Of a stretch of 32,000 bases of DNA, positions 7,624 to 23,695 are shown in pieces. Numbering within the stretch: the first letter of the stretch is position 1; each line of letters starts with the position of its first letter. Below the pieces are notes generated by a model. It did not search any database. It saw only the letters and a program-made list of their open reading frames with translations, and was not told the origin of the DNA. Source of the stretch: Erysipelotrichaceae bacterium (GTDB lineage Bacteria > Bacillota_I > Bacilli_A > Erysipelotrichales > Erysipelotrichaceae); contig JAUVVC010000008.1 in the NCBI GenBank assembly GCA_030604855.1, forward strand, positions 1-32,000, in the 5' to 3' direction. Both the position numbers and the translations under genes were made by a program.

Positions 7624-7649
7624 ATTATAAAAAACCGCTGAGATGCGGT
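7624..7649 (-). terminator. Rho-independent terminator of the 8344-7711 two-gene unit
   Basis: Minus strand reads ACCGC-ATCTCA-GCGGT followed by TTTTTTAT. The core differs from the repeat hairpin core by one loop base. Confidence 0.6.
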
Positions 7650-7710
7650 AATTACTTACGTTATGTATAGTGCTGGAATCAAAAATAGGGATAGTATAAA
7701 AATGAATGAA

Positions 7711-8034: not shown

Positions 8035-8035
8035 A

Positions 8036-8344
8036 CTAAATCATGTCCTTCTTGTTCTTTTTATACTCGGAAATTAATAGCTTCGCCGTCTCAAAATCAA
8101 TTTTCTCATTGACCGCAAGTTGCTTAATTAAGGCAACATAGGGTTCACTATAGGATTGTTCACTAATGTGTATTCTCTGTATCAATCGATCAAGTCTCAA
8201 ACGAACGGTAGGATATGTAACAGAATAAATGTTCGCAAGCTCTTTTAAGGACCCCGAAGCAAGTAAAAATTTCTTTATAAAAGAAACATCTTCATCGTCT
8301 AAATTCGTCATCCACTCTGGTAAAATATTGATTGGCATTCTCAT
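8036..8344 (-). CDS. DUF2089-like helix-turn-helix protein (no zinc ribbon), putative regulator
   Basis: LDDEDVSFIKKFLLASGSLKELANIYSVTYPTVRLRLDRLIQRI resembles the C-terminal HTH of DUF2089 proteins (...G.LKE....ISYPTVR.RLD...). Confidence 0.5.
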   Translation of the reverse strand: MRMPINILPEWMTNLDDEDVSFIKKFLLASGSLKELANIYSVTYPTVRLRLDRLIQRIHISEQSYSEPYVALIKQLAVNEKIDFETAKLLISEYKKNKKDMI

Positions 8345-8367
8345 TACCTTTAATAAAATTAAAGGTA
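8345..8367. promoter_or_regulatory. Perfect 10+3+10 palindrome abutting the start codon of the DUF2089-like gene; candidate operator or RBS-sequestering hairpin
   Basis: TACCTTTAAT-AAA-ATTAAAGGTA begins at the nucleotide next to the ATG (8344-8342, minus strand). Confidence 0.45.
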
Positions 8368-8659
8368 TTATTGAATATTATTAAAGTCAACATAAAATGA
8401 ACTCAATTGTAGACACAAGATACATTGGTTCATAAAGTTGCACCAATCTTGTCTGGAAAGTTCAGTATCATTGAGATTGTGTAATTTATGATTACTATTA
8501 TCCAACGATAACATCCATGTAATATTTATCTATTAATGAATGATTTGGAAACATCATATTCTCGCATAAAATTGGAACAAATTTTCATTGTGAATCCTTT
8601 ATCTAAACTAACTTTAATGTTAGGATGAAGATTAAGTGGAAAGCAGGGGAAATATAATA

Positions 8660-9484
8660 ATGAATGTAAAACTCGTAATTGCAGACATCGACGGGACCTT
8701 GGTGAACTATGGCAAAAACATCATGCCGTTGACACGACAAGCACTCATCGATCTTCATGAGAAAGGTGTTTTGTTAGGCATCGCATCCGGACGTCCTGTA
8801 GGAGATCAACTTAAAGCAAATGCAGAGCGTTGGGGCTTGGATTTTCAATTCGATGTCATCATTGGTATGAACGGTGGACAACTCTTGGACGTTCGCAACG
8901 ATACTTATCAAGAATTCTACAAGTTAAAGGGCGAAGTCATTCACGAAATCATCGATATGATGCGTCCATTGGATTTGAATCCTTTTGTTTATAAGACTGG
9001 TTACATGTTAAGTGGACGTTTGGATGAGGAAATGAAAGCGTCGGCTGTACGAAACCATGAACCTGCCCTTCCGGTTAATGACGAAGCTGAACTGTGGGAA
9101 GAAGATAATGCGAAATTGTTATTCAGATTGCCGCCAAATCCAAACGAAGTAAAGCGTATCGTTGAGTTTGCGGCAGCACATCCTAAACCCTACTATCAAT
9201 CCTTCTTATCTGGACCTAAGATGTTGGAGTTCCAAGATCCACGAGTTAATAAAGGCGTCGCTTTGATTGAGTATTGTCGTGCCAACAATATCGAGCTTTC
9301 TGAAGTCATCGCCATTGGGGATGCGTCGAATGATAATGATATGTTAAAAGTAGCGGGCGTAGGAGTATGTTTGAAGAGTGGTACACCGGATACACTTGCG
9401 ATCGCCGATGTCATCACAGAGTATGATTGTGATGAGGATGGCACAGGCCGATATCTTTATGACTATGTGTTGAATGTTGCTTGA
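8660..9484 (+). CDS. Cof-type HAD-IIB family hydrolase (sugar-phosphate phosphatase-like)
   Basis: Motif I VIADIDGTL, motif II GIASGR, motif IV GDASNDNDM. The ATG at 8660 is preferred to the GTG at 8636 (GGGGA about 9 nt upstream). Confidence 0.8.
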   Translation: MNVKLVIADIDGTLVNYGKNIMPLTRQALIDLHEKGVLLGIASGRPVGDQLKANAERWGLDFQFDVIIGMNGGQLLDVRNDTYQEFYKLKGEVIHEIIDMMRPLDLNPFVYKTGYMLSGRLDEEMKASAVRNHEPALPVNDEAELWEEDNAKLLFRLPPNPNEVKRIVEFAAAHPKPYYQSFLSGPKMLEFQDPRVNKGVALIEYCRANNIELSEVIAIGDASNDNDMLKVAGVGVCLKSGTPDTLAIADVITEYDCDEDGTGRYLYDYVLNVA

Positions 9485-9758: not shown

Positions 9759-10640
9759 ATGACAACGATAAAGAACGGTTTTGTGCTACACGACATTAAG
9801 AAGGATATCAAAATTGAATCCATTCATGCGATTTTTTACTCTGAACTTAAGAATACGCACATATTTAGTGGTGAGAGTCATGATTTTTGGGAATTCATGT
9901 ATGTCGACCATGGACACATCATCGGACATATTGAGTCAAATAATATGATGGTAGAAAAAGGGTACGGGATATTGATTCGACCTAATGATTTTCATGACCT
10001 ATATGGAAACGGACGCGATGCTTCAAATATTGTTAATTTTAGTTTTGTGTGTCATTTCGAAGGTCTTAATCAAGTGTGCAATCGGGTTAAAAAACTGACG
10101 CAGTTTCAATCCAATATTCTAAAGAATTTATTTGTTGCATTGGAGTTGCCTAAGACGAGCTTATACAAGCTGAATCTATACACCGCTTTGGATGGAAACA
10201 TAACAGGTAAACAGCAAATGATCGCCAATTTATTGGAGGTTTTTCTCATTGATTTCTATCAAAGTAACATCACCATCAAAACTACGGAACACTTACCGAT
10301 TCTGAGTGAAGAAGAACTTGACAAGGAAGCGGCAAACATCTTGTCTGTCATTCACTCAAACATCAATATCAAAATTGATTTGGAGTTCATTTCTGAAGAA
10401 ACAGGGTACACTGCAGAACGGATCCGAAAGGTCATCAAACAGAATTTTGATGTGCCTCTCAAAGTCTTGGTGAATCAAATCAAGATTAATAAAGCGAAAA
10501 CACTTTTACGCGAGACAGATATGAACATCTCAGAGATATCGGAATTCCTTGGATTTTCACGTATTGGCTATTTTTCTGATGTCTTTACATCCATTGTTGG
10601 AATGCGCCCAATGGATTACATCAGTTCGATTAAGGTATAA
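9759..10640 (+). CDS. AraC-family transcriptional regulator (cupin-like sensor plus C-terminal double HTH)
   Basis: 293 aa. The C-terminus KAKTLLRETDMNISEISEFLGFSRIGYFSDVFTSIVGMRP is the AraC/XylS HTH signature. The N-terminal region FWEFMYVDHGH...IRPNDFH is cupin-like. Confidence 0.85.
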   Translation: MTTIKNGFVLHDIKKDIKIESIHAIFYSELKNTHIFSGESHDFWEFMYVDHGHIIGHIESNNMMVEKGYGILIRPNDFHDLYGNGRDASNIVNFSFVCHFEGLNQVCNRVKKLTQFQSNILKNLFVALELPKTSLYKLNLYTALDGNITGKQQMIANLLEVFLIDFYQSNITIKTTEHLPILSEEELDKEAANILSVIHSNINIKIDLEFISEETGYTAERIRKVIKQNFDVPLKVLVNQIKINKAKTLLRETDMNISEISEFLGFSRIGYFSDVFTSIVGMRPMDYISSIKV

Positions 10641-10641
10641 A

Positions 10642-10655
10642 TGTAAGCGCTTATA
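10642..10655. promoter_or_regulatory. cre-like box (one mismatch) just downstream of the AraC stop and upstream of the transporter genes
   Basis: TGTAAGCGCTTATA versus TGWAANCGNTNWCA. It matches all positions except the penultimate conserved C, which is T here. Confidence 0.35.
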
Positions 10656-10747
10656 TTTTGTAAAATTAACTAAGGTTTTTGTAAAGACTTTATTTTGTTG
10701 CCAGATTAAACTGTAGATACAAGCACATAATGTGCAAGGAGGACAAA

Positions 10748-12100
10748 GTGAAGTTACGTAAGTTATTCGCTTTATTAACAATTGCTTCCTTAACGCTGGC
10801 CGGGTGTTCTCAAGCAGAACCTGAACCAGAAGTTGAAGAAATTGTCTTAAAGCTCGCCATCCAAGATGCTGGTTATGGCACCGCACACTGGGAACATATC
10901 ATCGAAACCTTTGAAGCGGAATATCCTAATGTCAGTGTTGAAATGACAGCAAGTCCAGATATTGGAACCTTGATCTCAACATTGGCACAAGCTGGTGATG
11001 ATGAAGAGATGTTCGACCTGATTCAAGCCTATAGCCCTTATGCGGCAGAAGGATTGCTTGAACCCTTAGATGATCTTCTTGATATGCCGTTACCAGACAA
11101 TCCAAATATTTTGTTAAAGGATGCATTCTTGGAAGGTGTCGACAAAATGGTCGTACCTGAAGCAGATGGTAACGTGTACAAGTTGCCTAAATCGATGTGG
11201 TTGGGTGGATTGTTCTACAATAAGGCTGTTTTCGAGAAATATGGATGGAACACCAATCCACAAAATTGGGAAGAATTCCTAGCCTTGATGGCGGATATCA
11301 AAGCAGATGGTTTAAGTCCAATGACCTATGCGGGCATCTATAACTACTTGTATTTCACCGTAGGTTGGCACAAAGCCTTTGAACTTGCGGAAGAAGCAGG
11401 AGATGCAGGATTCAGAAATGATTTCGTAAATTATGGAGATAACCGTTTCAATAACGAGTACATGTTGGCAGTTTATGACAAGGTCTATCAATTGGGTGAA
11501 TTAGGCTACTTTGATCAAGGTGTTGCCGTATTGGATCACACACAATCGCAAATGCAAGTCATTCAAGAGGAGTCTGCTTTGGTATCCTCTGCTGACTGGA
11601 TTGATAATGAAATGAAGAGTGCTTATCCAGTTGATGGTTTCACATGGGGATACATGAGCATTCCATTTGTTGAAGAAAAAGGCGGTAAGATTTATGTGAC
11701 GGCAGGTGCTTCGGATTCCCTATCCATTTGGGCAGGAAAATCTGATGTTCAAAAAGAATGGGCTAAGAAGTTCTTATTGTGGACATTCACGGATGATGCA
11801 CAAAAAGTGACTGCAGAAGCCGCAACTGCGCTTCCAGCTACAGCAACATTCTATGAGGATGAAGCCAATGTCGAGAACCTCGTATCGGCTCAAAAAGCAA
11901 TATTTGCATACATCGCTGAAAATAACGTTGTCATCGAATCCAACTATGCGATTCCACCAGCAAATCTAGATGGTGAATTGATGCAGATGGCAAATACAGA
12001 ATTTGAAACCAATATTCCTTTGATTAGCTTGGCTCAAAAGACAGCAAAAGAAGTCTTGGATGCTGCAAACGATTATTACCAACAAGCGGTTGGTCGATAG
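10748..12100 (+). CDS. ABC transporter extracellular solute-binding lipoprotein (CUT1 sugar/oligosaccharide type)
   Basis: Signal peptide plus lipobox, MKLRKLFALLTIASLTLAGCSQ. About 450 aa, acidic and Trp/Tyr-rich, typical of family-1 SBPs. GTG 10748 is preferred because SD AAGGAGG (10736-10742) sits 5 nt upstream. The ORF is open from 10730. Confidence 0.8.
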   Translation: MKLRKLFALLTIASLTLAGCSQAEPEPEVEEIVLKLAIQDAGYGTAHWEHIIETFEAEYPNVSVEMTASPDIGTLISTLAQAGDDEEMFDLIQAYSPYAAEGLLEPLDDLLDMPLPDNPNILLKDAFLEGVDKMVVPEADGNVYKLPKSMWLGGLFYNKAVFEKYGWNTNPQNWEEFLALMADIKADGLSPMTYAGIYNYLYFTVGWHKAFELAEEAGDAGFRNDFVNYGDNRFNNEYMLAVYDKVYQLGELGYFDQGVAVLDHTQSQMQVIQEESALVSSADWIDNEMKSAYPVDGFTWGYMSIPFVEEKGGKIYVTAGASDSLSIWAGKSDVQKEWAKKFLLWTFTDDAQKVTAEAATALPATATFYEDEANVENLVSAQKAIFAYIAENNVVIESNYAIPPANLDGELMQMANTEFETNIPLISLAQKTAKEVLDAANDYYQQAVGR

Positions 12101-12146
12101 TACAACGCTTGTAAAACCGTTTAACGAAAACCGTTAGCGATACCGC

Positions 12147-12183
12147 AAAAGACCTATCGCTTCTCGCGTAGGTCTTTTGTTTC
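12147..12183 (+). terminator. Intra-operon stem-loop or partial terminator between the SBP and permease genes
   Basis: AGACCTA (12150-12156) pairs with TAGGTCT (12169-12175) across a 12-nt loop, followed by TTTTGTTT. Confidence 0.5.
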
Positions 12184-12200
12184 ATAAGAAAGAAGGCTTT

Positions 12201-13133
12201 ATGAACCGAATCAAAAAATTCTTAAGTGATCATCCATGGATTGCCAAATATAGTTTTGTCTATGGTTTCTTAGCCATTCCATTGGCATTCTACTTGATCT
12301 TTTATCTCTTTCCCAATATTCTTTCCGTCTATTACTCCTTCATGAAATGGAGTGGATTATCGGATCCAAAGTTTATAGGATTGCAGAATTACACACGGCT
12401 CTTCAACGATCCCTTCTTCTACCGTTCTTTGACGCATAATTTCGTGTTGATGTTGCTGGTGCCAATCGTGACACTCAGCCTCGCTCTGATCTTGGCTTTC
12501 TTTCTTGCCCGTGGGCAATCTAAACGACACGACTTGCTTCAAGCGTTGTTCTTTGTCCCAAACATCATTTCTTCAGTTGTTATTGGTTTACTTTGGGCCT
12601 TTATTTACAATGGGGACTTTGGCTTATTGAATGCATTGTTTGGACTGATTGGAATCGATATGGATGGCTTCTGGTGGTTAGGCAATACGGATACGGCCTT
12701 GTTGGCTTTGGTACCTGTCTATGTATGGGTAAATGTAGGTTTCTACACCTTGATCTTCACTAATGCTATTAAAGGTATTCCAGACTCTTTGTATGAAAGT
12801 GCAATTTTAGAAGGTGCCACAGAAGGTCAGATTCTCCGTAAAATTGTCATTCCCATGATCATGGGTGTCATTTCCGTCAGTGCTTTGTTTCTTGTGTTGA
12901 TGACATTCAGATCGTATGATCTCGTCTTGATCTTGACCGGAGGTGGGCCTGGTGGTGCTACTCAAGTCGTTGGTCTATACATGTTCAGTATGGTCTTCCA
13001 AATCCTAGGAACAGCGGCTCGTACACCCAGTTATGGGTATGCATCCGCAATTGGAATCATTCTGTTTATTATCTTAATCGTTGCAAAATTCATCATCGAT
13101 AAGTTGACCAAAACCGATGATATTGAATTCTAG
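12201..13133 (+). CDS. ABC transporter permease (MalF/UgpA-like, CUT1)
   Basis: Six hydrophobic segments. The EAA-type loop AIKGIPDSLYESAILEGATEGQILRKIVIPM is present. The ATG at 12201 is preferred (GAAGG upstream). The ORF is open from 12177. Confidence 0.8.
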   Translation: MNRIKKFLSDHPWIAKYSFVYGFLAIPLAFYLIFYLFPNILSVYYSFMKWSGLSDPKFIGLQNYTRLFNDPFFYRSLTHNFVLMLLVPIVTLSLALILAFFLARGQSKRHDLLQALFFVPNIISSVVIGLLWAFIYNGDFGLLNALFGLIGIDMDGFWWLGNTDTALLALVPVYVWVNVGFYTLIFTNAIKGIPDSLYESAILEGATEGQILRKIVIPMIMGVISVSALFLVLMTFRSYDLVLILTGGGPGGATQVVGLYMFSMVFQILGTAARTPSYGYASAIGIILFIILIVAKFIIDKLTKTDDIEF

Positions 13134-13138
13134 GAGGC

Positions 13139-13969
13139 ATGATGAAAAAAAGAAACTCAATATTCGCAGAAATCATACTCTCTGTATGGGCTGGCTTGAT
13201 CGTCTTGCCATTGATTTGGATCGTATATGTTTCATTGAAAACAAACTATGAGTTTTATCTCGACCCTTGGGCATTGCCAGAAAGCTTACAATTTTCCAAC
13301 TACACCAATGCCATCACGACACTGAATCTTGGGCCCGTTTTTCTCAATACGATTTACTTCGTCTTTGGAGGTTTGATTCTCGGTGTTACAGTCAATACCA
13401 TGGCTGCTTACATTCTGACGCGCTTGGAATGGAAGGGAAAGAAGTTCATTCTCGGAGTCATCATGTTGTCTTTGTTCTTACCAGGCATCAATATCTTGGT
13501 TCCACAATATGTACTCGCCGTTTTCTTCAAATTAAACAACTCCTTAACAGGCTTGATTCTTTTGATCAATGTCGCATTAAGTGCGTTTGACATCTTGTTG
13601 ATGAGCAGTTTCATGCGTTCCATTCCTAAAGAACTTGAGGAAAGTGCACGGATGGATGGTGCAAGTTTATGGATCATTTTTTGGAAGATCATCTTTCCAC
13701 TATCAATGCCTGGAATCATTACGATTTCAATCTTCCGTTTCTTAAATCTATACAACGATTTTATCAATCCCTTTATCTATTTGACTGATCCAAGCAAACA
13801 TACGGTGGCAGTCAGTGTTTATTATGCGAATACGGTCTTACGTTATACCTCAAACTATGTCACGCTCTTTGCGGCCATCGTCGTATCACTGGTTCCTACA
13901 CTCGTGGTCTACGCGATCTTCCAAAAACGTGTCGTTGCAGGGGCAACCATTGGAGCTGTGAAAGGCTAG
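13139..13969 (+). CDS. ABC transporter permease (MalG/UgpE-like, CUT1)
   Basis: EAA loop SIPKELEESARMDGASLWIIFWKIIFPL with six hydrophobic segments. It starts 5 nt after the previous gene, behind AGGAGG. Confidence 0.8.
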   Translation: MMKKRNSIFAEIILSVWAGLIVLPLIWIVYVSLKTNYEFYLDPWALPESLQFSNYTNAITTLNLGPVFLNTIYFVFGGLILGVTVNTMAAYILTRLEWKGKKFILGVIMLSLFLPGINILVPQYVLAVFFKLNNSLTGLILLINVALSAFDILLMSSFMRSIPKELEESARMDGASLWIIFWKIIFPLSMPGIITISIFRFLNLYNDFINPFIYLTDPSKHTVAVSVYYANTVLRYTSNYVTLFAAIVVSLVPTLVVYAIFQKRVVAGATIGAVKG

Positions 13970-13981
13970 AAAGATATTCAT

Positions 13982-15226
13982 ATGAACTTAATTCTTATTG
14001 GTGCAGGCAACCGTGGTATGGAAATTTATGCACACTGGATCAAAGCCAAACATCCAGATGTGAAATTTGTTGCCATGGCTGATCCCAATGTGAACAAACG
14101 CCTGCGCTTTTCTCGTGATTTTAATATACCTCCCGAAGCGTGTTATGACTCTTGGGAAAGCATCTTAAGTCAAGATAAGCTTGCCGATGCGGCCATTATA
14201 TCCACACAGGATTTCATGCATTATGAACCAACGATTCAAGCCTTATCAAAAGGGTACCATGTCTTGTTAGAAAAGCCGATCTCAGGCTCTAAGAAAGAAT
14301 TGATTGATTTGCGTGAACATGCCAAAGCACAAAAACGCATTCTTTCCATAGCGCATGTGTTGCGCTATTCAGATTTCTTTGGTGTGATCAAACATTTACT
14401 TGATGACAAGGTTATTGGTGAGCTTAAAAGCATTCAACACGAAGAGAATATTGCGTACTACCACTACGCACATAGCTTTGTTCGTGGACCTTGGAACCGC
14501 TCTGACCTCGCCAATCCCATCATCTTAGCGAAGGCTTGCCATGATATGGACCTGATGGCATGGTATGTGGATTCAAAATGTATTCGTGTTTCCTCTTTTG
14601 GAACGCAAAACACATTGATACCCAAAAACAAACTCAAGGATGCACCACGTCGATGTGGTACGCACTGTCCCCATGCGGAGACGTGTGTCTATGAAGTCAA
14701 TAAATTGTATGGTCAAGCAAAAGCCCAACACCTTGCAAAAATCATTGAAAATGAATATGGAAGTCTCGAAAAGGGGTTGAATTCATCCAACTATGGACGT
14801 TGCGTTTACGATATGGACAACGATGTCATGGAGACACAAACAACTTTGCTCGAATTTGAAAATGGTGTGCACGTAAGTTTCCATTTATGCGCATTTACCG
14901 ATGAAATCTCACGTTACTTGCATTTGATGGGAACAGAAGGTGAAATTCGTGGAAACACCCTTGAACGCAAAATCGTTGTGAAGCGTTATGATGAAAAAGA
15001 AGAACGTGTCATTCAAATCGGAGAATCGGATTCACTTCATGAAGGTGGCGATGCAGGCATCGTCAAAGGATTCATCGAAGAGGTTCGAGCAAATAATATT
15101 GAGAACGGACGGACTTCTGTGGATAAATCCATCATGAGTCATTTGATGTCTTTAGCGGCGGAAGCTTCACGCTTAAGCCATCGCGTTATTGATATGGAAG
15201 TTTTTGAAAAGGAGATCGATGCATGA
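13982..15226 (+). CDS. Gfo/Idh/MocA-family NAD(P)-dependent oxidoreductase, paralogue 1 (four-Cys insertion)
   Basis: Rossmann motif ILIGAGNRG, EKP motif VLLEKPIS, K-x2-H-x2-D (KACHDMD), HEGGD near the C-terminus. Cys cluster C-GTH-C-PHAET-C ... GRC (14654-14803). Confidence 0.85.
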   Translation: MNLILIGAGNRGMEIYAHWIKAKHPDVKFVAMADPNVNKRLRFSRDFNIPPEACYDSWESILSQDKLADAAIISTQDFMHYEPTIQALSKGYHVLLEKPISGSKKELIDLREHAKAQKRILSIAHVLRYSDFFGVIKHLLDDKVIGELKSIQHEENIAYYHYAHSFVRGPWNRSDLANPIILAKACHDMDLMAWYVDSKCIRVSSFGTQNTLIPKNKLKDAPRRCGTHCPHAETCVYEVNKLYGQAKAQHLAKIIENEYGSLEKGLNSSNYGRCVYDMDNDVMETQTTLLEFENGVHVSFHLCAFTDEISRYLHLMGTEGEIRGNTLERKIVVKRYDEKEERVIQIGESDSLHEGGDAGIVKGFIEEVRANNIENGRTSVDKSIMSHLMSLAAEASRLSHRVIDMEVFEKEIDA

Positions 15227-16446
15227 AACTGGCACTGGTTGGAGCAGGGAATCGAATCACATTTCAATATGCCTTGAATCTGCATGATCATTATGCGGAT
15301 CAAGTCGAGATCGTCGGTATCTTTGATGCCAACACGACACGTGCCGAGCGCTTGCGTCAACGACTCGACGGTAAAGTAAAGACCTATCAAAGCATGGAAA
15401 GCATGTTGGCTGAAAGTGGTTGTGATACGGTTCTTGTAGGAACGATGGATGCCACACATGATGTCTATATCGATCAGGCAATGCGACATGGTTGTGATGT
15501 GATTTGTGAAAAACCAATCACGACGACACCCGAGAAATCCAAGGTGATTCTCAATGCTGAGCGAGAAACACAAAAACGATTGACGATCACGTTCAATTAC
15601 CGATTCACTCGCTTCGCTACGACCATCAAAGAGACTTTGCGTACACATTCAATTGGAACTATCAAAAGTGTTCATTTTGAGTGGTTGTTGGATCAGGAAC
15701 ATGGTGCGGATTATTTTAGACGTTGGCATCGTGAAAAAAAGAATTCAGGTGGGTTGGCGGTTCATAAGGCCACACATCACTTTGATTTGGTCAATTGGTT
15801 GATCGAGAAGAAACCTTTAGAGGTCTATGCCAAAGGGGGCCTCTACTTCTATGGGTCAAAGAACAGTTCATTTAAAGGAGATTATTGCCGTGTTTGTCCT
15901 CATCAAAAAGAGTGTCGCTTCTATAAGAATTACAAAGCTGACGAAGCCATCCATTCGATGTTTTTTGAAGCGGAACATGAAGATGGATATCATCGTGACG
16001 GATGCGTATTCTCGGATCAGATCGATATTGAAGATACCATCACGGCCTTAGTGTCGTATGAAGATGGGATTGATTTAAGCTATAAACTGATCGCCTATGC
16101 CCCGTATGAGGGCTATCGACTTACGATCACTGGTGATAAAGGACGTATAGAGGCTGAAGATTTCCATGGTCTGGTGGGTCCGTATGCAAATGAACAGATT
16201 TATCATCTTGTTGTATTCGATGATCAAGGAAATAAACAAACTATTGAGGTTCCAGTTTCAATAGGTTCACACGGGGGAGGGGATGATCGTATGATGGAGA
16301 TGATCTTTTCTGGAAAAACGATGGAAGATCCACTCAACCATATGGCAGACAGTGAAGCTGGCTTTGATGCGGCCTTTATTGGAATGGCGATCAATCATTC
16401 ATTGGCTGAAAAACGTGTCGTAAGAATTGAAGAATTGAGAAAGTAA
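15223..16446 (+). CDS. Gfo/Idh/MocA-family oxidoreductase, paralogue 2 (four-Cys insertion)
   Basis: LVGAGNRI, VICEKPIT, KATHHFD, HGGGD. Cys cluster C-RV-C-PHQKE-C ... DGC (15886-16005). ATGA start/stop overlap with paralogue 1. Confidence 0.85.
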   Translation: MKLALVGAGNRITFQYALNLHDHYADQVEIVGIFDANTTRAERLRQRLDGKVKTYQSMESMLAESGCDTVLVGTMDATHDVYIDQAMRHGCDVICEKPITTTPEKSKVILNAERETQKRLTITFNYRFTRFATTIKETLRTHSIGTIKSVHFEWLLDQEHGADYFRRWHREKKNSGGLAVHKATHHFDLVNWLIEKKPLEVYAKGGLYFYGSKNSSFKGDYCRVCPHQKECRFYKNYKADEAIHSMFFEAEHEDGYHRDGCVFSDQIDIEDTITALVSYEDGIDLSYKLIAYAPYEGYRLTITGDKGRIEAEDFHGLVGPYANEQIYHLVVFDDQGNKQTIEVPVSIGSHGGGDDRMMEMIFSGKTMEDPLNHMADSEAGFDAAFIGMAINHSLAEKRVVRIEELRK

Positions 16447-16459
16447 GGGTGTAATACAC

Positions 16460-17641
16460 ATGCAAAAATTTATCATCGTCGGAGGGGGTGCCCGTGGCAT
16501 CTTCTTCTCGGAAATACTTGAAAATGAACTTAACTGCAAAGTGCTTGCGATCATGGACAAATTCGTAGAGGGGAATCCATTCATTGAGGCTCGATTGAAA
16601 GAAGCGAAGATTGAAGGCGTTGAAATTTACAACGATTTAGAAGCCATGCTTGAAAAATATCCAAGTGATTCAGTAGATGGAGCCTTTATTATGACACCGG
16701 AGTGGACGCATTTAAGCGTCTTTAAGCGATTAACAAAGGGAAATTACAATATCTTTCTTGAGAAACCGATTGCGACCACCAAAGAAGCCATATTAGAAAT
16801 TGGTCAAATCGCAAAGAGTTATCCAAAAGTGATTCAAGTAGGCTTTGTCATGCGTTATTCTCCTTTCTATCGTAAGATCAAATCTTGGATCGCAGAAAAT
16901 GATATGGGACGCATCGCACACATTCAAATGAGTGAACGTTTGACTGTTGCGCATGGTACAAAGTTCAAAAGAAGTTGGCATCGTATGAAAGAATTCACGG
17001 GGGGCTTCATGAATGAGAAGTGCTCACATGACTTGGATATGATGTGTTGGATCAAAGAAAAAGACGCCAAACCTGTAGGGGTCATGTCCATGGGAACACG
17101 TGCGTTTGCGCATGAATCGGTTGGACAGACATCCTGTTCAACATGTCCAGACAAGAAGTGTATCTATCGTGAAGACATCACTCAGTATGCGAAATATCAT
17201 GCGGGTAAGGTTCTTCTGGATAGCACAGCGGGTGGCGTGAATGAATGCATTTATGGCAATGCATCGGACATTCACGATACACAGTCGGTTATGATTTTAT
17301 TTGATGATGGGACGCACGGAACCTTTTCGGTCGTCGCTATGAGTGGTAAGGATGGCCGTGACATCACGATTCATTTCGAATATGGCATGATCTACGGTGA
17401 TCTAGAAGCAGGTGATTTGACGAAGATTGACTATCGTACGAATCAAACAGAGAAATATCATATCTCTGGAATGAATTTTCATGGGGGTGGTGATACCATC
17501 GTTGTTCGTGAATTTACTGAATGTAGCTTAAATGGAACGAAGCCAGTGGCATCCGTTGAAGATGGTCTTCGTGCATCCCTGCTTGCTTTCTGCGTAGACG
17601 AAAGCATAGAATTGAAATCATTTGTGAGGCTGCCTGAATGA
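16460..17641 (+). CDS. Gfo/Idh/MocA-family oxidoreductase, paralogue 3 (four-Cys insertion)
   Basis: IIVGGGARG, IFLEKPIA, KCSHDLD, HGGGD. Cys cluster C-ST-C-PDKK-C ... NEC (17135-17248). Confidence 0.85.
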   Translation: MQKFIIVGGGARGIFFSEILENELNCKVLAIMDKFVEGNPFIEARLKEAKIEGVEIYNDLEAMLEKYPSDSVDGAFIMTPEWTHLSVFKRLTKGNYNIFLEKPIATTKEAILEIGQIAKSYPKVIQVGFVMRYSPFYRKIKSWIAENDMGRIAHIQMSERLTVAHGTKFKRSWHRMKEFTGGFMNEKCSHDLDMMCWIKEKDAKPVGVMSMGTRAFAHESVGQTSCSTCPDKKCIYREDITQYAKYHAGKVLLDSTAGGVNECIYGNASDIHDTQSVMILFDDGTHGTFSVVAMSGKDGRDITIHFEYGMIYGDLEAGDLTKIDYRTNQTEKYHISGMNFHGGGDTIVVREFTECSLNGTKPVASVEDGLRASLLAFCVDESIELKSFVRLPE

Positions 17642-18567
17642 TAAAATATCGCACTTTAAAGACACAAGCAGAGTTGAATGAAGCGATTCAATTAAGTAAT
17701 CATGTGTTTTTTCAGTGCGATTCTTTTTTTGAACGACGCTATCCCCATGTGTTTAGTTTGGATAATCTAGATCATCTGTTTGGAGCTTTCAATGAGGGTG
17801 AGTTGGTGAGTTTCATAGCGACTTATCCTTCCATTGTATCGTTTAAAGACAGTCTAGTCTCTGTTTGTACACTGGGGTCTGTTTGTACTCACCCAGATTT
17901 TCAAGGCCAAAGGATTTCTTTTCGCTTGTTGGAATACGTAGGAGATGCTTTGAGCGATCAAGTGGATCTGCTCTTCATTTCAGGCGAAGGAAAAAACTAC
18001 CTTCGTTTTAATGCGAGTGTTGCGGGCAAGATCTACGAAGTTCATGTCCCGAGTACAGCTTTTTCAGAGACATCAAAGCCGTATCGAATCATCAAGCGTG
18101 CTGAAGATTTGGATGTGAATGCTTATCATCGAGCGTATCTCAATGAGCGGAAACCTAAATTTGAGAGAAGTCTAAAAGAACAGAAATTGATGGTGAAAGG
18201 TCATTTTGAAGAACTGGGAAATGAACAGAATCTCGTTCTTCAGGATGTTGAGAAGAACGTCTTTGCATGTATTCGTATCGCTTTTGAAGGAGAGAATAAG
18301 ATTGCTTTTATGATCGAACGTGTTGGGGATTTCGACTTACAAATCGCAGAAGATCTTGCTAAGCATTTAAGCTGCGACAAATTTTTCTATCGTTCGCAAT
18401 ATGAAATCTGCTCGCGACATCAGATTTATGCTCAATCTATTCCGATCACTGGTACGATTAAAGTGATCCGCCCCAAGTTTGGATTGAATGCGGTCGATTG
18501 GTTTGGAAACTTGAACCATGAAGGACGATTGCCATCGTTACGTGTGGATCACTTAAACTTTTTATGA
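17638..18567 (+). CDS. GNAT-family (Eis-like) acetyltransferase-fold protein
   Basis: 309 aa. GSVCTHPDFQGQRISFRLLEYV is the GNAT acetyl-CoA (motif A) region. It has extra C-terminal domains, as in Eis-type enzymes. ATGA overlaps at both ends. Confidence 0.6.
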   Translation: MIKYRTLKTQAELNEAIQLSNHVFFQCDSFFERRYPHVFSLDNLDHLFGAFNEGELVSFIATYPSIVSFKDSLVSVCTLGSVCTHPDFQGQRISFRLLEYVGDALSDQVDLLFISGEGKNYLRFNASVAGKIYEVHVPSTAFSETSKPYRIIKRAEDLDVNAYHRAYLNERKPKFERSLKEQKLMVKGHFEELGNEQNLVLQDVEKNVFACIRIAFEGENKIAFMIERVGDFDLQIAEDLAKHLSCDKFFYRSQYEICSRHQIYAQSIPITGTIKVIRPKFGLNAVDWFGNLNHEGRLPSLRVDHLNFL

Positions 18568-20492
18568 GCACTTTTATTAAGATTGAAGAAAAAATGGGAC
18601 TGAGTATGCCCTACGAGGATTTGAACAATCAATTGAATCGTATGGTTTTAAACCGTTCCAAGCAAGCATATGCAAAACGAGATCGGATTAAGCATGAGTT
18701 GAATGACTTGAACCTTCTTAAAAAGCATCAAGCTTCGATCAAAGCGAATGTCTTGAATGCATTGGGAGGGCTACCCAATGTATCGGGTCTGACTCGAGCT
18801 CAAATAAGGTCTATTGAGGAATTCGATGGATATCATCGCGAGAATATCGTATTTGAATCTTTACCCAAGGTGTATGTGACGGCTAATCTGTACAAACCAA
18901 AATTCATACAGTCTGAGCAATATCCCTGCATCATTTTAGCCTGTGGTCATCAAAGACTGGGTAAACATTCAGAAGAATATCAGTTTGTGGCTCAAACCTT
19001 GGTTTCTTATGGGTTCATTGTTTTTGTGCTCGACAATTTTGGTCAAGGGGAGCGATTCAGCTATCTTAAAGAAGGTGTTCAATACATTGAAGCTTTGACA
19101 TACGAGCACGATCATGCGGGTTATCAAAGTAGTCTCTTGGGGGATAATATCGCCCGATACATGGTGCATGACTTACGTCGTGCAATCGACTATCTCGTTA
19201 CAAGGAGTGATGTTGATGCAAAACGGATCGGTATGACAGGCAACTCGGGTGGTGGGACCTTAACATCCTTAATGATGATCTTGGATGATCGTATCCAAGC
19301 AGCCGCACCCGCAACCTTTATTACGCGTCGAGACATCTATCAAATGACGGGTCAAGCGCAAGATCGTGAGCAACATTGGTTTAATCTGGCTGATCAAGGC
19401 TTTGATCATGAAGATTTCTTATTGGCATTCACGCCTAAACCACTTCGATTATTGATTGCGAACCATGACTTCTTCCCTGTCGAAGGCACCTTGAAATCGT
19501 ACTCATTGGCTAGAAGAGCCTACGCTCTTTACGAAAGCATAGATCAGCTGAGTTATATGCGATTTCCGGTTGAACACAGTTATCCAATCGAGATGGCAAA
19601 GGATGCGGCACTCTTTTTTCAGTCTGTATTCATGCTAGAGGGTCATCATCCCATTCGGCATCATTTTGATGAGCATTGTTTATGCACTGCAAAGGGACAT
19701 GTGGTAAGTACGTATCCAAATGCTCGTTTTGTTTATGATTTGAATTTGGAACGACTCGAAGCCATAAAAAAGAAACGTGATCTAGATGCCAATACGCAAT
19801 TGATTCAGTATTTGAAAGATATTGTTTATAAGCATCGACATTTTGATGCGTTTCATACAAGATTTTTAGGCGTTTTGGATGAGATATCGACTTGTCATTT
19901 AGAACATTGGACCTATCAATCACAAGTAGATATGTCTTCGAGTATATTATGGTTTAGAAACAAAGAGCAGAGCACACATCAAGTACTAGCTATTTGGGCA
20001 GGGGGAAGTTCTAAGCTGAGTCAATATGAGGTGTTCGTAAACGAATGTCTCAAAAACCAAAAGGATGTGTTTGTCTTAGATCTAAGTGGAGAAGGCTATC
20101 TTAGACAAAGTGATTTGATTGAATGGGCAAAGAGCGATGAGAGTTATGGCTCACTTTATAAGCTGAATGATGATCTGTTCTGGCTTGGAGATTCATTGGC
20201 TGCGCTGCGCACCTATGAGCTCATCCAAGCGATTGAATGGATTCAAACACAAGAAAACAAACCTCTTGAAATCCAAGCCTTTGGTAAACACAGCATTTAT
20301 GCAAAGATTGCGTCTTGTTTAAGTCGTCATCGATGCACATATCATGAACACGATGGATTTAAAGGATATGAGGATTGGTTGAAACAATGGACATATGTGG
20401 AAAGTGATGGCTGGAATTTCTTGTTTCCGGGAATACTTCGTTATGGGGATCTTTCCGATCTCCAGTGCAATGATAATCAAGCGGGTGTTTAG
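18564..20492 (+). CDS. Alpha/beta-hydrolase (esterase-like, Ser nucleophile in GNSGGG) with a second, apparently degenerate alpha/beta-hydrolase-like half
   Basis: 642 aa. The oxyanion-type segment ILACGHQRLGK, the nucleophile elbow IGMTGNSGGGT and the downstream D/H-containing segments resemble acetyl-esterase or dienelactone-hydrolase-like families. Residues from about 470 on (VLAIWAGGS...VFVLDLSGEG...LGDSLAALR) look like a repeat of the fold without a clean GxSxG. Confidence 0.6.
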   Translation: MSTFIKIEEKMGLSMPYEDLNNQLNRMVLNRSKQAYAKRDRIKHELNDLNLLKKHQASIKANVLNALGGLPNVSGLTRAQIRSIEEFDGYHRENIVFESLPKVYVTANLYKPKFIQSEQYPCIILACGHQRLGKHSEEYQFVAQTLVSYGFIVFVLDNFGQGERFSYLKEGVQYIEALTYEHDHAGYQSSLLGDNIARYMVHDLRRAIDYLVTRSDVDAKRIGMTGNSGGGTLTSLMMILDDRIQAAAPATFITRRDIYQMTGQAQDREQHWFNLADQGFDHEDFLLAFTPKPLRLLIANHDFFPVEGTLKSYSLARRAYALYESIDQLSYMRFPVEHSYPIEMAKDAALFFQSVFMLEGHHPIRHHFDEHCLCTAKGHVVSTYPNARFVYDLNLERLEAIKKKRDLDANTQLIQYLKDIVYKHRHFDAFHTRFLGVLDEISTCHLEHWTYQSQVDMSSSILWFRNKEQSTHQVLAIWAGGSSKLSQYEVFVNECLKNQKDVFVLDLSGEGYLRQSDLIEWAKSDESYGSLYKLNDDLFWLGDSLAALRTYELIQAIEWIQTQENKPLEIQAFGKHSIYAKIASCLSRHRCTYHEHDGFKGYEDWLKQWTYVESDGWNFLFPGILRYGDLSDLQCNDNQAGV

Positions 20493-20558
20493 TCGGCTAT
20501 CATAAACTAATGAGACTTATAAGAAAATCTAAGAGGATGGAAATAAGAGAGGCTTGAA

Positions 20559-22481
20559 ATGAGATACATTTTACGACAAACGATTTTAGAGTCAAAATGG
20601 GAATGTCAGATTGAAGAGATCTTAACACTGGCCAAAAAGGTTCCAATTGAAGAAATCATGTTCATGGAGCAATCACACCAAATCGTAATGGTTCCTTATC
20701 CCCTTGAAAAACATCAGAGGATGGCAGAGATTTATGCAATCATGGGGCAACGTCTGCGAGAGGCGGGAATTGATTATTCAGTGAACATCGCTACGATTGT
20801 CGGACATGCGGATGCGCCAGTTTCGGAATCCATGGCTTTTCCGTTTCAGAAATTTATCGGTGAGGATTTGAAAGAGTGCAATGCAGTCTATTGCATTGGA
20901 GACGAAGATTGGCAATCCTATGCACAAGAAGTCGTCAAACTCTACGCACAAACGCATCCAAAGCGCATCATGATCGATGATGATTTCAGGTCGCTCAATC
21001 ACACGGCACAATTCGGCTGCTTTTGTGATCTGCACATGACATCATTAAGAAATGAGCTTCAACTTTCAAAGGATTTTACATCGGATCAGCTCGTGAGAGT
21101 TCTACTCGGTCATTCAGTGAATGAGATAATAATCAAACAGGCATGGCAGAAAGTCAATTTTGATTTCCAGCTCAATGCCGCAAAGAAGATCGAACATGCG
21201 ATCCATTCAATTGATCCTATGATAGAAGTCGGATTGATGAATTCAGGTGAACAAACGCATTCTTTACAGGGACGAGACATGTCCAAGCTTCTTCAAACAT
21301 TTGCAGGGGAAGATCGTAAAGCACTTTCAAGACCAGCAGGCGGTGCTTATGCGGATGGTCTCCATGCACAGATCATCAATATGCACCAAATGCCCGCACT
21401 GAGCTATCATGCAGCAAAAGTTGATACATTTTGGGTTTCTGAGGTTGAAAACTGGCCACATACACGATACAACAAAAGTCTTGCCATAACAAAACTACAA
21501 CTTTTGATGCATGCCTTGTTTGGTGCGGATGCATTGACACTGAATTTATACGATTATCTAGCGACTCCGCATGCGCTTGAGCCTGGATGGGAAGACATAT
21601 TAAGAACGAGCAAGCCACAGTTGGATAAAATTAAGGAAATACGTAAAGGTAAAAGTCTCAAAGGCGTTTCTTTACCCTGGAAAGATAATTATGCATCTGT
21701 AACGAAGAATCGCTCTCATACATTTTCTGATCTCTACCCTAGACGGCCTCTAGATTTACTTTTACCACAGATGGGGATTCCAACTCAATTTGAGATATCA
21801 ACGATCAACATCCTACTTGGTGATGAAGTCCTGGCGTACACACTGGATGAACTTGAAATGTTCTTAAGCAGAGGGTTGTTGTTGGATAATATCGCAGCCA
21901 GACATTTGATTGAATTGGGTTATCAGAAGGATTTAGGCATTCGTTTTAAAGAGCGGATTGAAGGGCCTTGTGTTGAGCGCTTAAGTGATGTTTATTTTTC
22001 TGAAGCTTACCATCAACGTGATATTCCAACAAACTGGTTTAGAATGAACATTCAAGGGGATGCCATTGAAGTGATGGAACTTGATGCATCCGCAAAAGCC
22101 ATTGCTCATTTTGTTGATCCAGAAGATAACGTCCTCAGTCCTTCAATAGCTTTGTTTGAAAACGCAAGAGCTGGCAAGATTGCGATCATGGCTCAAACAG
22201 TTCAGGAACTGGCATTTCTTCATCGGGGAAAATCCATTCAAATGCAAGCCATCTTTAAGTGGATGGATCCAGGAATCGAAACTTTTATGATTTATGAGAG
22301 ACCCAATATCGCTCCTTTTGTATACGAAGATGAAAAAGAAGGTCTCTATGTTTTGGTCAATACAGGCTTGGATGAAGAAAGTATAGAACTCCCTGAGCAA
22401 TTCCTTGCAATAGATGGAATTGATCATCGAAAGATTACCCTTAAACCCTTGGATTTTAAAGTGTTTAAATATCAAGTCTAA
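20559..22481 (+). CDS. 640-aa conserved-looking cytoplasmic protein of unknown function (last gene of the operon)
   Basis: Long uninterrupted ORF with an SD (AGAGAGG) and no signal peptide or TM segments. I recognise no family motif. Segments such as IMIDDDFRSLNH...GCFCDLH and VSEVENWPHTRYN could be active-site-like, but that is speculation. Confidence 0.6.
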   Translation: MRYILRQTILESKWECQIEEILTLAKKVPIEEIMFMEQSHQIVMVPYPLEKHQRMAEIYAIMGQRLREAGIDYSVNIATIVGHADAPVSESMAFPFQKFIGEDLKECNAVYCIGDEDWQSYAQEVVKLYAQTHPKRIMIDDDFRSLNHTAQFGCFCDLHMTSLRNELQLSKDFTSDQLVRVLLGHSVNEIIIKQAWQKVNFDFQLNAAKKIEHAIHSIDPMIEVGLMNSGEQTHSLQGRDMSKLLQTFAGEDRKALSRPAGGAYADGLHAQIINMHQMPALSYHAAKVDTFWVSEVENWPHTRYNKSLAITKLQLLMHALFGADALTLNLYDYLATPHALEPGWEDILRTSKPQLDKIKEIRKGKSLKGVSLPWKDNYASVTKNRSHTFSDLYPRRPLDLLLPQMGIPTQFEISTINILLGDEVLAYTLDELEMFLSRGLLLDNIAARHLIELGYQKDLGIRFKERIEGPCVERLSDVYFSEAYHQRDIPTNWFRMNIQGDAIEVMELDASAKAIAHFVDPEDNVLSPSIALFENARAGKIAIMAQTVQELAFLHRGKSIQMQAIFKWMDPGIETFMIYERPNIAPFVYEDEKEGLYVLVNTGLDEESIELPEQFLAIDGIDHRKITLKPLDFKVFKYQV

Positions 22482-22538
22482 GAAGGTTTTTGTGAGCAAA
22501 ATCAAGCATTCGTTTATTCGAATGTGTATAATATCGTC

Positions 22539-23123
22539 ATGAATCAGCTCAAGAAAAAATACAAACTCAAACAGATGTACATCATCATACTTAGAGCATA
22601 TCGTTCCATCCTCAGTCTTTTCAAAAATCGTATTAAAAAAACTGTCGATCCGATGTTGATTGAACGTTTGATGTTAGCGACGACTGAAGTAAATGGCTGT
22701 GATGTGTGTTCTTATGCACATACAAAAATGGCGCTTATGGAAGGATTCAAGCAAGAAGAAATCGATGCATTTTTAAGTGGCAGTGCGGATTATGTACATG
22801 AACATGAAGCTAAAGCAATCTTTTATGCCCAACATGTCGCGGATACGATGGGTGAACCTGATTCTGATGCCACACGTGTTTTATTGGAAAACTATGGTGT
22901 TCAAGCCTCAAAAATCATGCGTGCTGGAATAAACATGATGATGATGGGTAATGTCAGTGGAATTCCATTGAGTGCCTTGCTTAGAAGAATGAAGGGAAAT
23001 CCCTATCAGAACAGTACCCTGCTCTATGAGTTAGGTATGTTGGCAGTGCAGCCCCTCGTATTTGCCTTCGCTTTTATTCATGCGATCCTAGATGCGTTAA
23101 TATTTAAAAGATTTGGGCTGTGA
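22539..23123 (+). CDS. Carboxymuconolactone decarboxylase/AhpD-like family protein with a hydrophobic C-terminal tail
   Basis: TTEVNGCDVCSYAHTKMAL is the AhpD/CMD CxxC...H core. The C-terminal LLYELGMLAVQPLVFAFAFIHAIL is hydrophobic. The start is ambiguous: GTG 22524 or ATG 22539, neither with an SD. Confidence 0.6.
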   Translation: MNQLKKKYKLKQMYIIILRAYRSILSLFKNRIKKTVDPMLIERLMLATTEVNGCDVCSYAHTKMALMEGFKQEEIDAFLSGSADYVHEHEAKAIFYAQHVADTMGEPDSDATRVLLENYGVQASKIMRAGINMMMMGNVSGIPLSALLRRMKGNPYQNSTLLYELGMLAVQPLVFAFAFIHAILDALIFKRFGL

Positions 23124-23135: not shown

Positions 23136-23695
23136 GTGGAAAAAATACTCGTTAACGAACTACTAACTTTGCAGTATAAATGGGTTTTGGAGCTTGGACT
23201 TGTCATCTGAGAATTCCAGGAACATCTAAATTGGATGGTAAATGGGGCTTGTTGAAAGTGTCTGGAACCATTGATGGCTTTCCGGTATCGAATTTCAATC
23301 TAGCACCTCGAAAAGGAGAAGATCGCATCATCTCAATCAATAAGAAGATACGAGATGCGATTGGGATTGGACTTCAGAATTTTCCTGAAGGCGCTGCTGT
23401 ATCCATTCCATTACGTCGTGAAGGGTTCAGTCGAACAAAAGCGTTCTTATATGGGCAAGCTTCAGGGATAGTAGAACCACTCGCGGGTGTTCTTGGTGCA
23501 TATGCGGTTATTAAGATTCAACCCATCTTACCTTATGCGCTCGCATTTGCGGCAGGCGCCATGATTTACGTCGTTGTTGAGGAACTTATTCCCGAAGCAC
23601 AAAGAGAAGAAGGTGGTTCAAAGACGGATGTTGCGACGATTGGTGCGATGTTAGGTTTTGCGGTCATGATGGAACTTGATGTTGCGTTAGGTTGA
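23136..23695 (+). pseudogene. Decayed chimera: a frameshifted DUF1905-like gene fused in frame to the C-terminal roughly 110 codons of a ZIP (ZupT/GufA-like) metal transporter
   Basis: GTG 23136 (SD GAGGA) opens [15 protein letters not shown]..., which stops at 23210. The +2 frame from 23180 continues [13 protein letters not shown]...[13 protein letters not shown]...[10 protein letters not shown] (DUF1905-like). At about 23360-23372 it switches to [13 protein letters not shown]...[19 protein letters not shown]...[13 protein letters not shown], the last helices of a ZIP transporter. The N-terminal roughly 150 residues of that transporter are absent. Confidence 0.6.

Follow-up and report, generated by a model that had tools for sequence, protein, structure and literature searches.

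Results

A sugar-import operon with a probable distant relative of GH42

The analysis of a 32,000-nucleotide stretch from an Erysipelotrichaceae bacterium (assembly GCA_030604855.1, contig JAUVVC010000008.1, positions 1 to 32,000 of the forward strand; hereafter the window) revealed a genuine ten-gene sugar-import operon (Table 1), the tenth gene of which encodes a 640-aa protein without database annotation (hereafter the orphan). This protein is a very distant relative of the beta-galactosidases of glycoside hydrolase family 42 (GH42), so that the encoded pathway probably contains a glycosidase. An initial annotation, made by a model from the nucleotide sequence, had been unable to place the orphan, had seen no recognisable glycoside hydrolase (GH) and had suggested that the Gfo/Idh/MocA oxidoreductases of the operon cleave glycosides by a non-hydrolytic route. 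These three points need to be revised: fold and profile-profile comparisons place the orphan with GH42, as a remote homologue with the three-domain fold of that family, and Gfo-based cleavage is not needed to explain the locus and is disfavored by the genomic context described below.

The orphan did not match any Pfam model (including Glyco_hydro_42) or NCBIfam model, and searches against the PDB, performed by phmmer with the single sequence as well as with a 46-sequence profile of the family, returned no GH42 chain and nothing meaningful. An AlphaFold2 model from 46 sequences (pLDDT 94.1, pTM 0.93) shows the (beta/alpha)8 barrel, alpha/beta domain and C-terminal beta-sandwich of the GH42 fold. 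Correspondingly, Foldseek comparison with the PDB yielded full-length matches to more than 20 GH42 chains (E 4e-21 to 1e-14, TM-score 0.60-0.67, 10-13% identity), followed by a GH35 beta-1,2-glucosyltransferase, a GH164 beta-mannosidase and the archaeal glucosaminidase GlmA (E 6.5e-10). Furthermore, profile-profile alignment by hhalign with a GH42 profile, which was built from five full-length GH42 genes fetched from plasmids, resulted in a probability of 95.1% (E 3e-8) with 561 aligned columns extending over all three domains. At the sequence level, the relationship was detected by hhalign only and not by HMMER.

Within this alignment, the metal cluster maps cleanly, with C112, C154, C156 and H159 of the orphan aligned to the Cys cluster C122/C162/C164/C167 of the Pantoea GH42 enzyme; the position of H159 is occupied by Cys in 3 of 35 family members. 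The metal-binding Cys cluster of GH42 is kept in the orphan as a predicted metal site. The acid/base and the nucleophile of GH42, however, do not map cleanly, with register shifts occurring around inserted and deleted loops. Across all 35 members, which share 20-57% identity, the residues R6, D141, D142, M227, E295, K306 and E473 are invariant. D141 and D142 are located within a six-residue insertion straight after the strand 136-139, while E295 is part of the strand 290-297, and by DSSP strand order these two strands are exactly three apart, with one barrel strand after. In clan GH-A, the catalytic residues are carried by strands beta4 and beta7 (PMC6566704), and the strands of D141/D142 and E295 appear to match this relationship in the model. 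The orphan can accordingly be modelled as a divergent GH42-derived glycosidase with a putative Asp-Asp/Glu catalytic set.

The family represented by the orphan is large. The first search retrieved 109 homologues of about 640 aa, all of them labelled hypothetical, and an exhaustive profile search extended this to 2,610 clusters (50% identity) at E <= 1e-3, 1,114 of which reach 1e-30. Genome matches span Bacillota, Spirochaetota, Verrucomicrobiota, Lentisphaerota, Planctomycetota and Actinomycetota. As judged against Pfam and NCBIfam, the family is unclassified.

Organization of the operon and its importer

In line with the initial annotation, which had described an AraC gene followed on the same strand by nine tightly packed genes, the open reading frame (ORF) check of the window yielded ten ORFs with identical boundaries (9759-22481), with successive gaps of 89, 76, 5, 12, -4, 13, -4, -4 and 66 nt. 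At 15223, 17638 and 18564, start and stop codons overlap as ATGA, which can be read straight from the sequence. A scan for promoters and terminators found sites no more numerous than in shuffled sequence. The comparison of gene neighborhoods that had been suggested for the block showed the same gene order in independent assemblies, in which the orphan is 100%, 89%, 72%, 68% and 56% identical to that of the window. Because the gene order recurs in independent assemblies, the block does not represent a chance run of ORFs. The AraC gene opens the block in the loci L001, L002 and L055 (loci are given by L numbers throughout), and no description of the block was found in the literature.

Table 1. 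Genes of the operon and the adjoining CMD/AhpD-like gene, with positions in the window
Feature	Position	Strand	Evidence
AraC-family regulator, 293 aa	9759..10640	+	Pfam HTH_18 E 1e-12, weak AraC_binding match
ATP-binding cassette (ABC) importer lipoprotein, substrate-binding protein (SBP), 456 aa	10730..12100	+	NCBIfam TIGR03850 carbohydrate SBP E 9e-50; lipobox LTLAGC
ABC permease 1, MalF/UgpA-like	12177..13133	+	BPD_transp_1 E 2.5e-11; NCBIfam GlcT, UgpA, MalF matches
ABC permease 2, MalG/UgpE-like	13139..13969	+	BPD_transp_1 E 1.6e-15; NCBIfam GlcU, MalG matches
GfoA, Gfo/Idh/MocA with four-cysteine insertion, 414 aa	13982..15226	+	PF01408 E 3e-18; GAGNRG; EKP at 97
GfoB, Gfo/Idh/MocA with four-cysteine insertion, 407 aa	15223..16446	+	PF01408 E 1e-22, PF02894 E 1e-21; EKP at 96
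GfoC, Gfo/Idh/MocA with four-cysteine insertion, 393 aa	16460..17641	+	PF01408 E 2e-11; GGGARG; EKP at 101
GNAT acyltransferase, 309 aa	17638..18567	+	N-terminal Acetyltransf_9 and C-terminal half without assignment
CE19-like serine esterase (predicted) with duplicated second alpha/beta-hydrolase-like domain, 642 aa	18564..20492	+	phmmer, Foldseek, motif
Orphan, GH42-like three-domain candidate glycosidase, 640 aa	20559..22481	+	AlphaFold2 fold, Foldseek, hhalign to GH42
CMD/AhpD-like protein (CxxC)	22524..23123	+	PF02627 in L001; 42-nt gap after orphan

The importer comprises a lipoprotein SBP and two MalF/MalG-type permeases, and its previous assignment to the CUT1 type agrees with the Pfam and NCBIfam results; no gene for an ABC ATPase turned up in those parts of the window that were scanned. 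In many Firmicutes, an MsmX-type ATPase encoded elsewhere is shared by importers. Besides TIGR03850, the SBP matches the SBP of the NgcE type (N-acetylglucosamine (GlcNAc)/chitobiose; E 2e-34), with both matches being below cut-off. Inspection of the N-termini revealed no signal peptide on any enzyme of the operon.

Three ancient Gfo paralogues with a four-cysteine insertion

That three Gfo/Idh/MocA proteins are encoded in a row, as initially annotated, was confirmed by matches above the Pfam cut-off to PF01408 for all three proteins and, likewise, to at least one C-terminal Gfo model (PF02894 or PF22725). GfoB carries the motif GAGNRI instead of GxGxxG. Concerning GfoA, it should be noted that public gene calls start at the equivalent of 14018 (402 aa), whereby the NAD-binding motif GAGNRG is lost, and that the start at 13982 (414 aa) retains this motif. 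The three proteins are ancient paralogues that share only 25-27% identity with each other, and each has its own orthologues in relatives, in the same order.

An insertion in the C-terminal domain harbors four Cys residues in the arrangement CxxC-x4-5-C ... C, which are invariant in all 18 sequences of the three orthogroups (225/229/235/274 in GfoA, 222/225/231/261 in GfoB and 226/229/234/263 in GfoC). No solved structure matches this insertion by sequence, and no description of it was found in the literature. The four Cys residues could form a structural Zn site or an Fe-S site.

The Gfo trio is orthologous to no characterized dehydrogenase, including the known inositol and sugar dehydrogenases. 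Overall, NCBIfam scores were 21-101 bits at cut-offs of 330-750, with 21-33 bits for the BT_2158/BT_2159 families (cut-offs 650-750), 57-101 bits for IolG (cut-off 355) and 25-50 bits for levoglucosan dehydrogenase (cut-off 650), and the match to UDP-GlcNAc 3-dehydrogenase was also far below its cut-off. Matches in the PDB cover the Rossmann half only and end near residue 205-211; weak matches include glucuronide-3-dehydrogenase, DgpA, NanOx and YjhC. According to Pfam, the Glyco_hydro_109_C domain is absent from GfoA, GfoB and GfoC and present in neighboring proteins at the related loci L051 and L072 (E 1e-59).

A CE19-like esterase and a GNAT acyltransferase

Pfam and NCBIfam describe the 642-aa protein encoded upstream of the orphan as an AXE1/S9/DLH-like alpha/beta-hydrolase. 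Its best sequence match is BT1017 (6goc; phmmer E 7.7e-19, residues 82-359), a pectin methylesterase and the founding member of carbohydrate esterase family 19 (CE19). BT1017 was also the top Foldseek match (E 4e-16) of the structural model (pLDDT 93.8), followed by CE15 glucuronoyl esterases and CE7 acetyl esterases. The motif G-N-S228-G-G-G as well as D302 and H338 are invariant in 38 homologues, and the spacing of S228/D302/H338 equals that of the BT1017 triad S282/D352/H388 (PMC7939467). Based on motif, triad spacing and top structural match, the protein is predicted to be a CE19-like serine esterase of the BT1017 type, and it belongs to a large family with more than 2,100 matches. Besides the triad, C127, H129, H182, H282 and C374 are invariant or nearly so. 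For BT1017, a Cys2His2 zinc site about 9 Å from the catalytic serine has been reported, to which these Cys/His residues might correspond.

The description of this protein as a double esterase is valid for its architecture, its N- and C-terminal halves being homologous (hhalign 95%). The nucleophile serine, however, is found in the N-terminal half only, with no conserved serine in the C-terminal half, so that the second domain is probably inactive and the activity probably single. Similarly, the term Eis-like, which had been applied to the GNAT protein, can apply at most to the N-terminal GNAT domain. Acetyltransf_9 was found in all 7 orthologues, and the profile gave weak PDB matches to the Eis-like entry 2i00 (E 6e-4, best) and to AAC(2') (E 3e-3). 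Neither a second GNAT domain nor an SCP2-like domain was identified by Pfam in these orthologues; the C-terminal half contains the conserved motif RLPSxRVDxLNFL.

Genomic context in relatives

Three contexts of the orphan recur among 44 genome loci, in about half of which the orphan gene directly follows an SBP-permease-permease set. The first corresponds to the operon of the window and consists of an ABC importer, GfoA/B(/C), in part GNAT, the esterase, a NagB-like protein, the orphan and NagA. In the second, which was seen among others in Hungatella, Blautia, Treponema and Lachnospiraceae, SBP, permease, permease and orphan are followed by a sulfatase whose C-terminal domain is of the SGSH type, and the third is composed of a GH109-like gene, two permeases, an SBP, the orphan, a metallo-beta-lactamase-fold protein and a major facilitator superfamily (MFS) transporter. 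The sulfatase context recurs as a compact five-gene unit of SBP, two permeases, orphan homologue and sulfatase (L013, L014, L016, L017, L020-L022, L024, L026, L030 and L048), which is carried by Hungatella, Blautia, Treponema, other spirochaetes and Lachnospiraceae; the SGSH-type domain was seen in L048, the sole locus with this unit for which Pfam annotation was available. From this arrangement, the substrate of the sulfatase-linked subfamily may be a sulfated amino-sugar disaccharide.

Relatives of the first type with 52-68% orphan identity exhibit the gene order of the window in a longer operon (hereafter the long form). Here, a NagB-like gene (126.8 bits; cut-off 326) is inserted between esterase and orphan, and the orphan gene is followed by genes for NagA (256.6 bits; cut-off 225.65, TIGR00221), tagaturonate reductase (470.8 bits; cut-off 359, NF002969) and a protein of the altronate/galactarate dehydratase family (GD_AH). 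AgaS is encoded next in L053, L054 and L008; L053 additionally contains an N-acetylgalactosamine (GalNAc)-type phosphotransferase system (PTS) and KbaZ, while the operon of L050 ends with KdgK and the KDPG aldolase Eda in place of AgaS. Within L050 (4047-6436), a tandem duplicate of GfoC raises the number of Gfo genes to four. No sugar kinase and no UxaC were found in the long-form operons. In comparison to E. coli NagB, the NagB-like protein of the relatives keeps the equivalent of Lys208, shows an ambiguous Arg172 and carries the changes D141N and E148D.

The window represents a short form, with a 66-nt gap at the position of the NagB-like gene and a CMD/AhpD-like gene after the orphan. Relatives with 89% and 72% orphan identity retain this short form, which therefore constitutes a maintained variant and not the result of decay. 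The CMD/AhpD-like gene, which encodes the CxxC motif NGCDVCSYAH, trails the orphan in every short-form locus (L001, L055, L056 and L057) and is possibly the eleventh gene of the short-form operon. An 18-nt inverted repeat (22507-22524) is located between both genes.

GfoA orthologues are encoded in L029, L049, L050, L053, L054 and L072. GfoA and GfoB travel with esterase, NagB-like protein and NagA in L029 and L049, whereas GfoC travels with GNAT in L005 and L050. A metagenome scan for GfoB orthologues retrieved at least 590 stretches, and neighbors were counted in those 48 loci that extend over at least 8 kb. The NagB-like protein was the most frequent neighbor (7 loci), followed by NagA (6), GfoA (5) and the esterase (5); a true GH109 gene occurred in one locus (L072), and several loci were SusC/SusD loci. 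The orphan was absent from all 48 loci. Conversely, it is found without any Gfo gene in approximately 30 of the 44 genome loci. Because each recurs without the other, the orphan should function independently of Gfo enzymes, and the Gfo/NagA/NagB-like module should be able to operate alongside other glycosidases. This separate occurrence of the orphan and the GfoA/GfoB modules suggests that the Gfo enzymes act on the sugar after its release and do not themselves break the glycosidic bond.

Flanking regions of the window

Upstream of the operon (4167-9484), the window encodes, on the minus strand, a 457-aa beta-eliminating lyase that resembles tryptophanase or tyrosine phenol-lyase in type; further genes are those for a transaldolase/FSA, PPK2, a DUF2089 regulator and, right before the AraC gene, a Cof-type HAD phosphatase (8636-9484); these neighbors appear unrelated to the operon. 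Positions 1-4000 are of low GC content (28-33%, compared to about 41% elsewhere) and contain an HTH_3 regulator together with short RhuM and Fic/DOC fragments, probably a mobile-element or prophage remnant. Downstream, at 23180-23695, an ORF of 171 aa, in which a weak match to DUF1905 is joined to the C-terminal portion of a ZIP metal transporter, looks like a fused or truncated remnant, with L055 harboring only a 92-aa DUF1905 gene at this place.

Discussion

A proposed hydrolytic pathway

From gene content, folds, homologies and synteny, we infer the activities, the order of steps and the substrate as follows. With somewhat more confidence than doubt, we propose an AraC-controlled catabolic operon for an imported, esterified, amino-sugar-containing oligosaccharide or glycoside, which would be cleaved hydrolytically and then processed by NAD-dependent enzymes. 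The lipoprotein SBP and the two permeases would import the substrate, presumably together with a shared ATPase encoded elsewhere, and all processing would take place in the cytoplasm. The CE19-like esterase (putative triad Ser228/Asp302/His338) would take off the ester group, and the orphan would hydrolyse the glycosidic bond, for which Asp141-Asp142 and Glu295 are put forward as the catalytic residues. A 2-amino or 2-acetamido group may be recognised by the Asp pair, in analogy to the Asp-Glu motif of archaeal GlmA. The Gfo trio would then convert the released amino sugar(s) in NAD(P)-dependent reactions, and a free amine would be N-acylated by the GNAT. Later steps could be catalyzed by enzymes of the NagA, NagB-like, UxaB, UxaA and AgaS types, which are encoded within the operon in relatives and, if at all, elsewhere in the genome of the window. 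The fate of the products would be shown by the additional genes of the long form (NagB-like, NagA, tagaturonate reductase, altronate-dehydratase-like and AgaS, in some loci together with a GalNAc PTS or with KdgK and Eda). The CE19-like esterase and the NagA, NagB-like, AgaS and GalNAc-PTS genes of relatives are also in favor of the earlier suggestion that the substrate is an acylated and/or amino-substituted glycoside, which we consider likely. Inositol, L-galactose, pectin oligomers, GPI/GIPC head groups and sialic acid were considered as specific substrates as well and rejected; each explains part of the gene set only, and the respective signature genes (iol, UxaC, NanA/E/K) are not present.

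Several observations weigh against the hydrolytic pathway. The Asn-Glu acid/base of GH42 (N156-E157) is not conserved in the orphan, where it aligns to T149 and a gap, and the GH42 nucleophile E314 aligns to F291, four residues upstream of Glu295. The putative assignment of D141, D142 and E295 as catalytic residues is based on their invariance and strand position. Regarding the esterase, CE19 offers a single characterized member for comparison, which acts on uronate methyl esters (PMC10483417). Furthermore, the window encodes neither NagA nor the NagB-like protein, UxaB or UxaA, and the link to amino sugars is borrowed from relatives. The conserved Gly of the acetyl-CoA motif is replaced by Arg in the GNAT lineage of the window: residues 89-94 read QGQRIS in the window and its closest relative (L055), compared to (Q/R)GQGxS in distant orthologues. 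Finally, the proposed pathway does not account for three separate Gfo enzymes.

Alternative pathways

A different division of labor would be an oxidative, non-hydrolytic cleavage, in which one or more of the Gfo enzymes would oxidise the glycoside at C3 (or C2) and a subsequent elimination would free the aglycone, in the manner of GH109, GH4 or the 3-keto-glycoside route. The orphan would then be no hydrolase but would assist as a lyase or hydratase for keto or ene intermediates. This would fit three Gfo genes in a row, the GfoA/B/C-type genes found beside the orphan in the distant loci L005 (Actinobacteria), L006 (Clostridiales) and L029 (Lachnospiraceae), the lack of the canonical Asn-Glu in the orphan, the true GH109 genes in the related clusters L051 and L072, and the weak matches of the Gfo proteins to glucuronide-3-dehydrogenase, DgpA, NanOx and YjhC. 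However, most genome loci with the orphan are devoid of Gfo genes, so that its activity should be independent of them, and the GfoB modules of the metagenomes occur without the orphan throughout. Moreover, no xylose-isomerase-like lyase/hydratase of the known 3-keto route is present, the Gfo proteins do not possess the GH109-specific domain, and their scores against the BT_2158/BT_2159 families are far below the cut-offs. On balance, we regard oxidative cleavage as unlikely.

A second possibility concerns the steps after cleavage and assumes a non-phosphorylative pathway for amino sugars or amino-uronates, in which a carboxylate, in place of the usual 6-phosphate, serves the NagA and NagB-like enzymes as a handle and tagaturonate is converted via altronate to 2-keto-3-deoxygluconate (KDG). 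The carboxylate could originate from the oxidation of a released N-acetylhexosamine or hexosamine to an acid sugar by the Gfo enzymes, or the substrate could already contain a 2-acetamido-uronic acid. Such a pathway would account for the combination of NagA, a divergent NagB-like protein, tagaturonate reductase and an altronate-dehydratase-like protein in the long form without a kinase or UxaC, and L050 adds KdgK and Eda to it. The closest structural relatives of the esterase (CE19 and CE15) act on uronate esters, and NagA/NagB-like genes are joined with GfoA/GfoB in L029, L049, L072 and L096, where probes for ROK and PfkB kinases remained unmatched. On the other hand, the pathway is deduced purely from the gene content of relatives, with none of the downstream genes being encoded in the window; the GalNAc PTS, AgaS and KbaZ of L053 would give 6-phosphates in the conventional way, and L005 contains ROK and PfkB kinases. 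Moreover, no Gfo enzyme is known to oxidise C6. A loss of phosphate-binding residues from the NagB-like protein would favor a carboxylate substrate; its alignment, with the Lys208 equivalent kept and Arg172 ambiguous, speaks neither for nor against the pathway. Both origins of the carboxylate taken together, we judge this pathway quite improbable. We give a low, though not negligible, chance to the broader hypothesis that the operon supplies the import and first-stage part of an undescribed route for amino-sugar glycosides, in which a GH42-derived family with Asp-Asp instead of Asn-Glu, possibly reading a 2-amino group, and a metal-bearing Cys4 Gfo subfamily cooperate with NagA and NagB-like enzymes and hexosamine is converted to tagaturonate and KDG without phosphorylation.

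Finally, an operon for the import and modification or detoxification of an aminoglycoside-like or other amine-bearing natural product by the GNAT, esterase and redox enzymes is very improbable: while the profile of the GNAT gives weak matches to acetyltransferases of the Eis-like and AAC(2') types and sets of esterases and oxidoreductases are common in xenobiotic clusters, these GNAT matches reach only E 1e-3 to 1e-4, a CUT1-type sugar importer and a GH42-like protein are present, and the synteny of relatives with NagA, NagB, UxaAB, AgaS, PTS, KdgK and Eda points to energy-yielding catabolism.

Significance

The operon is of a familiar general kind, a sugar-utilisation operon, with three components outside characterized families: the GH42-derived family, the Cys4 Gfo subfamily and the two-domain CE19-like esterase. 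In bacteria of the gut and of the environment, the orphan family is encoded beside sugar importers, sulfatases and amino-sugar genes. Its substrate, once defined, would provide an annotation for thousands of genes now labelled hypothetical and could shed light on the use of sulfated or amino-sugar glycans by gut Firmicutes and spirochaetes. Likewise, an unrecognised hexosamine metabolism may be indicated by the Cys4 Gfo paralogues and the NagA and NagB-like partners that recur with them. In addition, the case calls for caution with sequence-only scans, as the lack of a GH motif says little in favor of a non-hydrolytic pathway.

Comparison with known systems

The three-domain architecture of the orphan is shared over the full length with GH42 enzymes such as those of Thermus (A4, 1kwg), Gan42B (4oif) and Rahnella (5e9a), which are likewise cytoplasmic and usually encoded beside sugar ABC importer genes. 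In contrast to these enzymes, the orphan lacks the Asn-Glu dyad and contains the inserted invariant Asp-Asp instead, its loop past the nucleophile strand is shorter, and its neighbors point to amino sugars and sulfated sugars and not to galactans. The three-domain layout is also common to GlmA, in which the Asn preceding the acid/base is exchanged for an Asp; this Asp determines specificity by binding glucosamine at its C2-NH3+ (PMC6566704). GlmA keeps Glu as acid/base (Asp-Glu), whereas the pair of the orphan is Asp-Asp; CsxA has an Asp for the acid/base itself (PMC6566704). Moreover, GlmA is paired with a deacetylase and a SIS-type deaminase, comparable to NagA and the AgaS-like SIS-type deaminase of the long-form operons, while the archaeal pathway has no Gfo, GNAT or CE19 partners.

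With GH109, NanOx/YjhC, DgpA, the glycoside 3-dehydrogenases BT2158/BT2159 and IolG, the Gfo trio has a Rossmann domain, an EKP motif and an alpha/beta domain at the C-terminus in common, and also the context of a sugar ABC importer and NagA/NagB, as in the nan cluster of R. gnavus (PMC7535918). The Gfo proteins of the window, however, harbor the Cys4 insertion, while no cysteine or zinc site is reported in the NanOx paper.

The 642-aa esterase is only 21% identical to BT1017, has no DUF3826 domain, and is cytoplasmic and encoded outside any rhamnogalacturonan II (RG-II) locus. Its two-domain layout is the same as that of the CE19 protein TBR22_41900 (approximately 634 aa), the second domain of which superposes on the first (PMC10483417). 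As for the known aga/nag clusters (AgaA/NagA, AgaS, AgaI/NagB, KbaZ and GalNAc PTS), such genes are joined to the long form in relatives and none of them is encoded in the window, while these clusters in turn are devoid of the Gfo trio and of GNAT, CE19-like and GH42-like genes.

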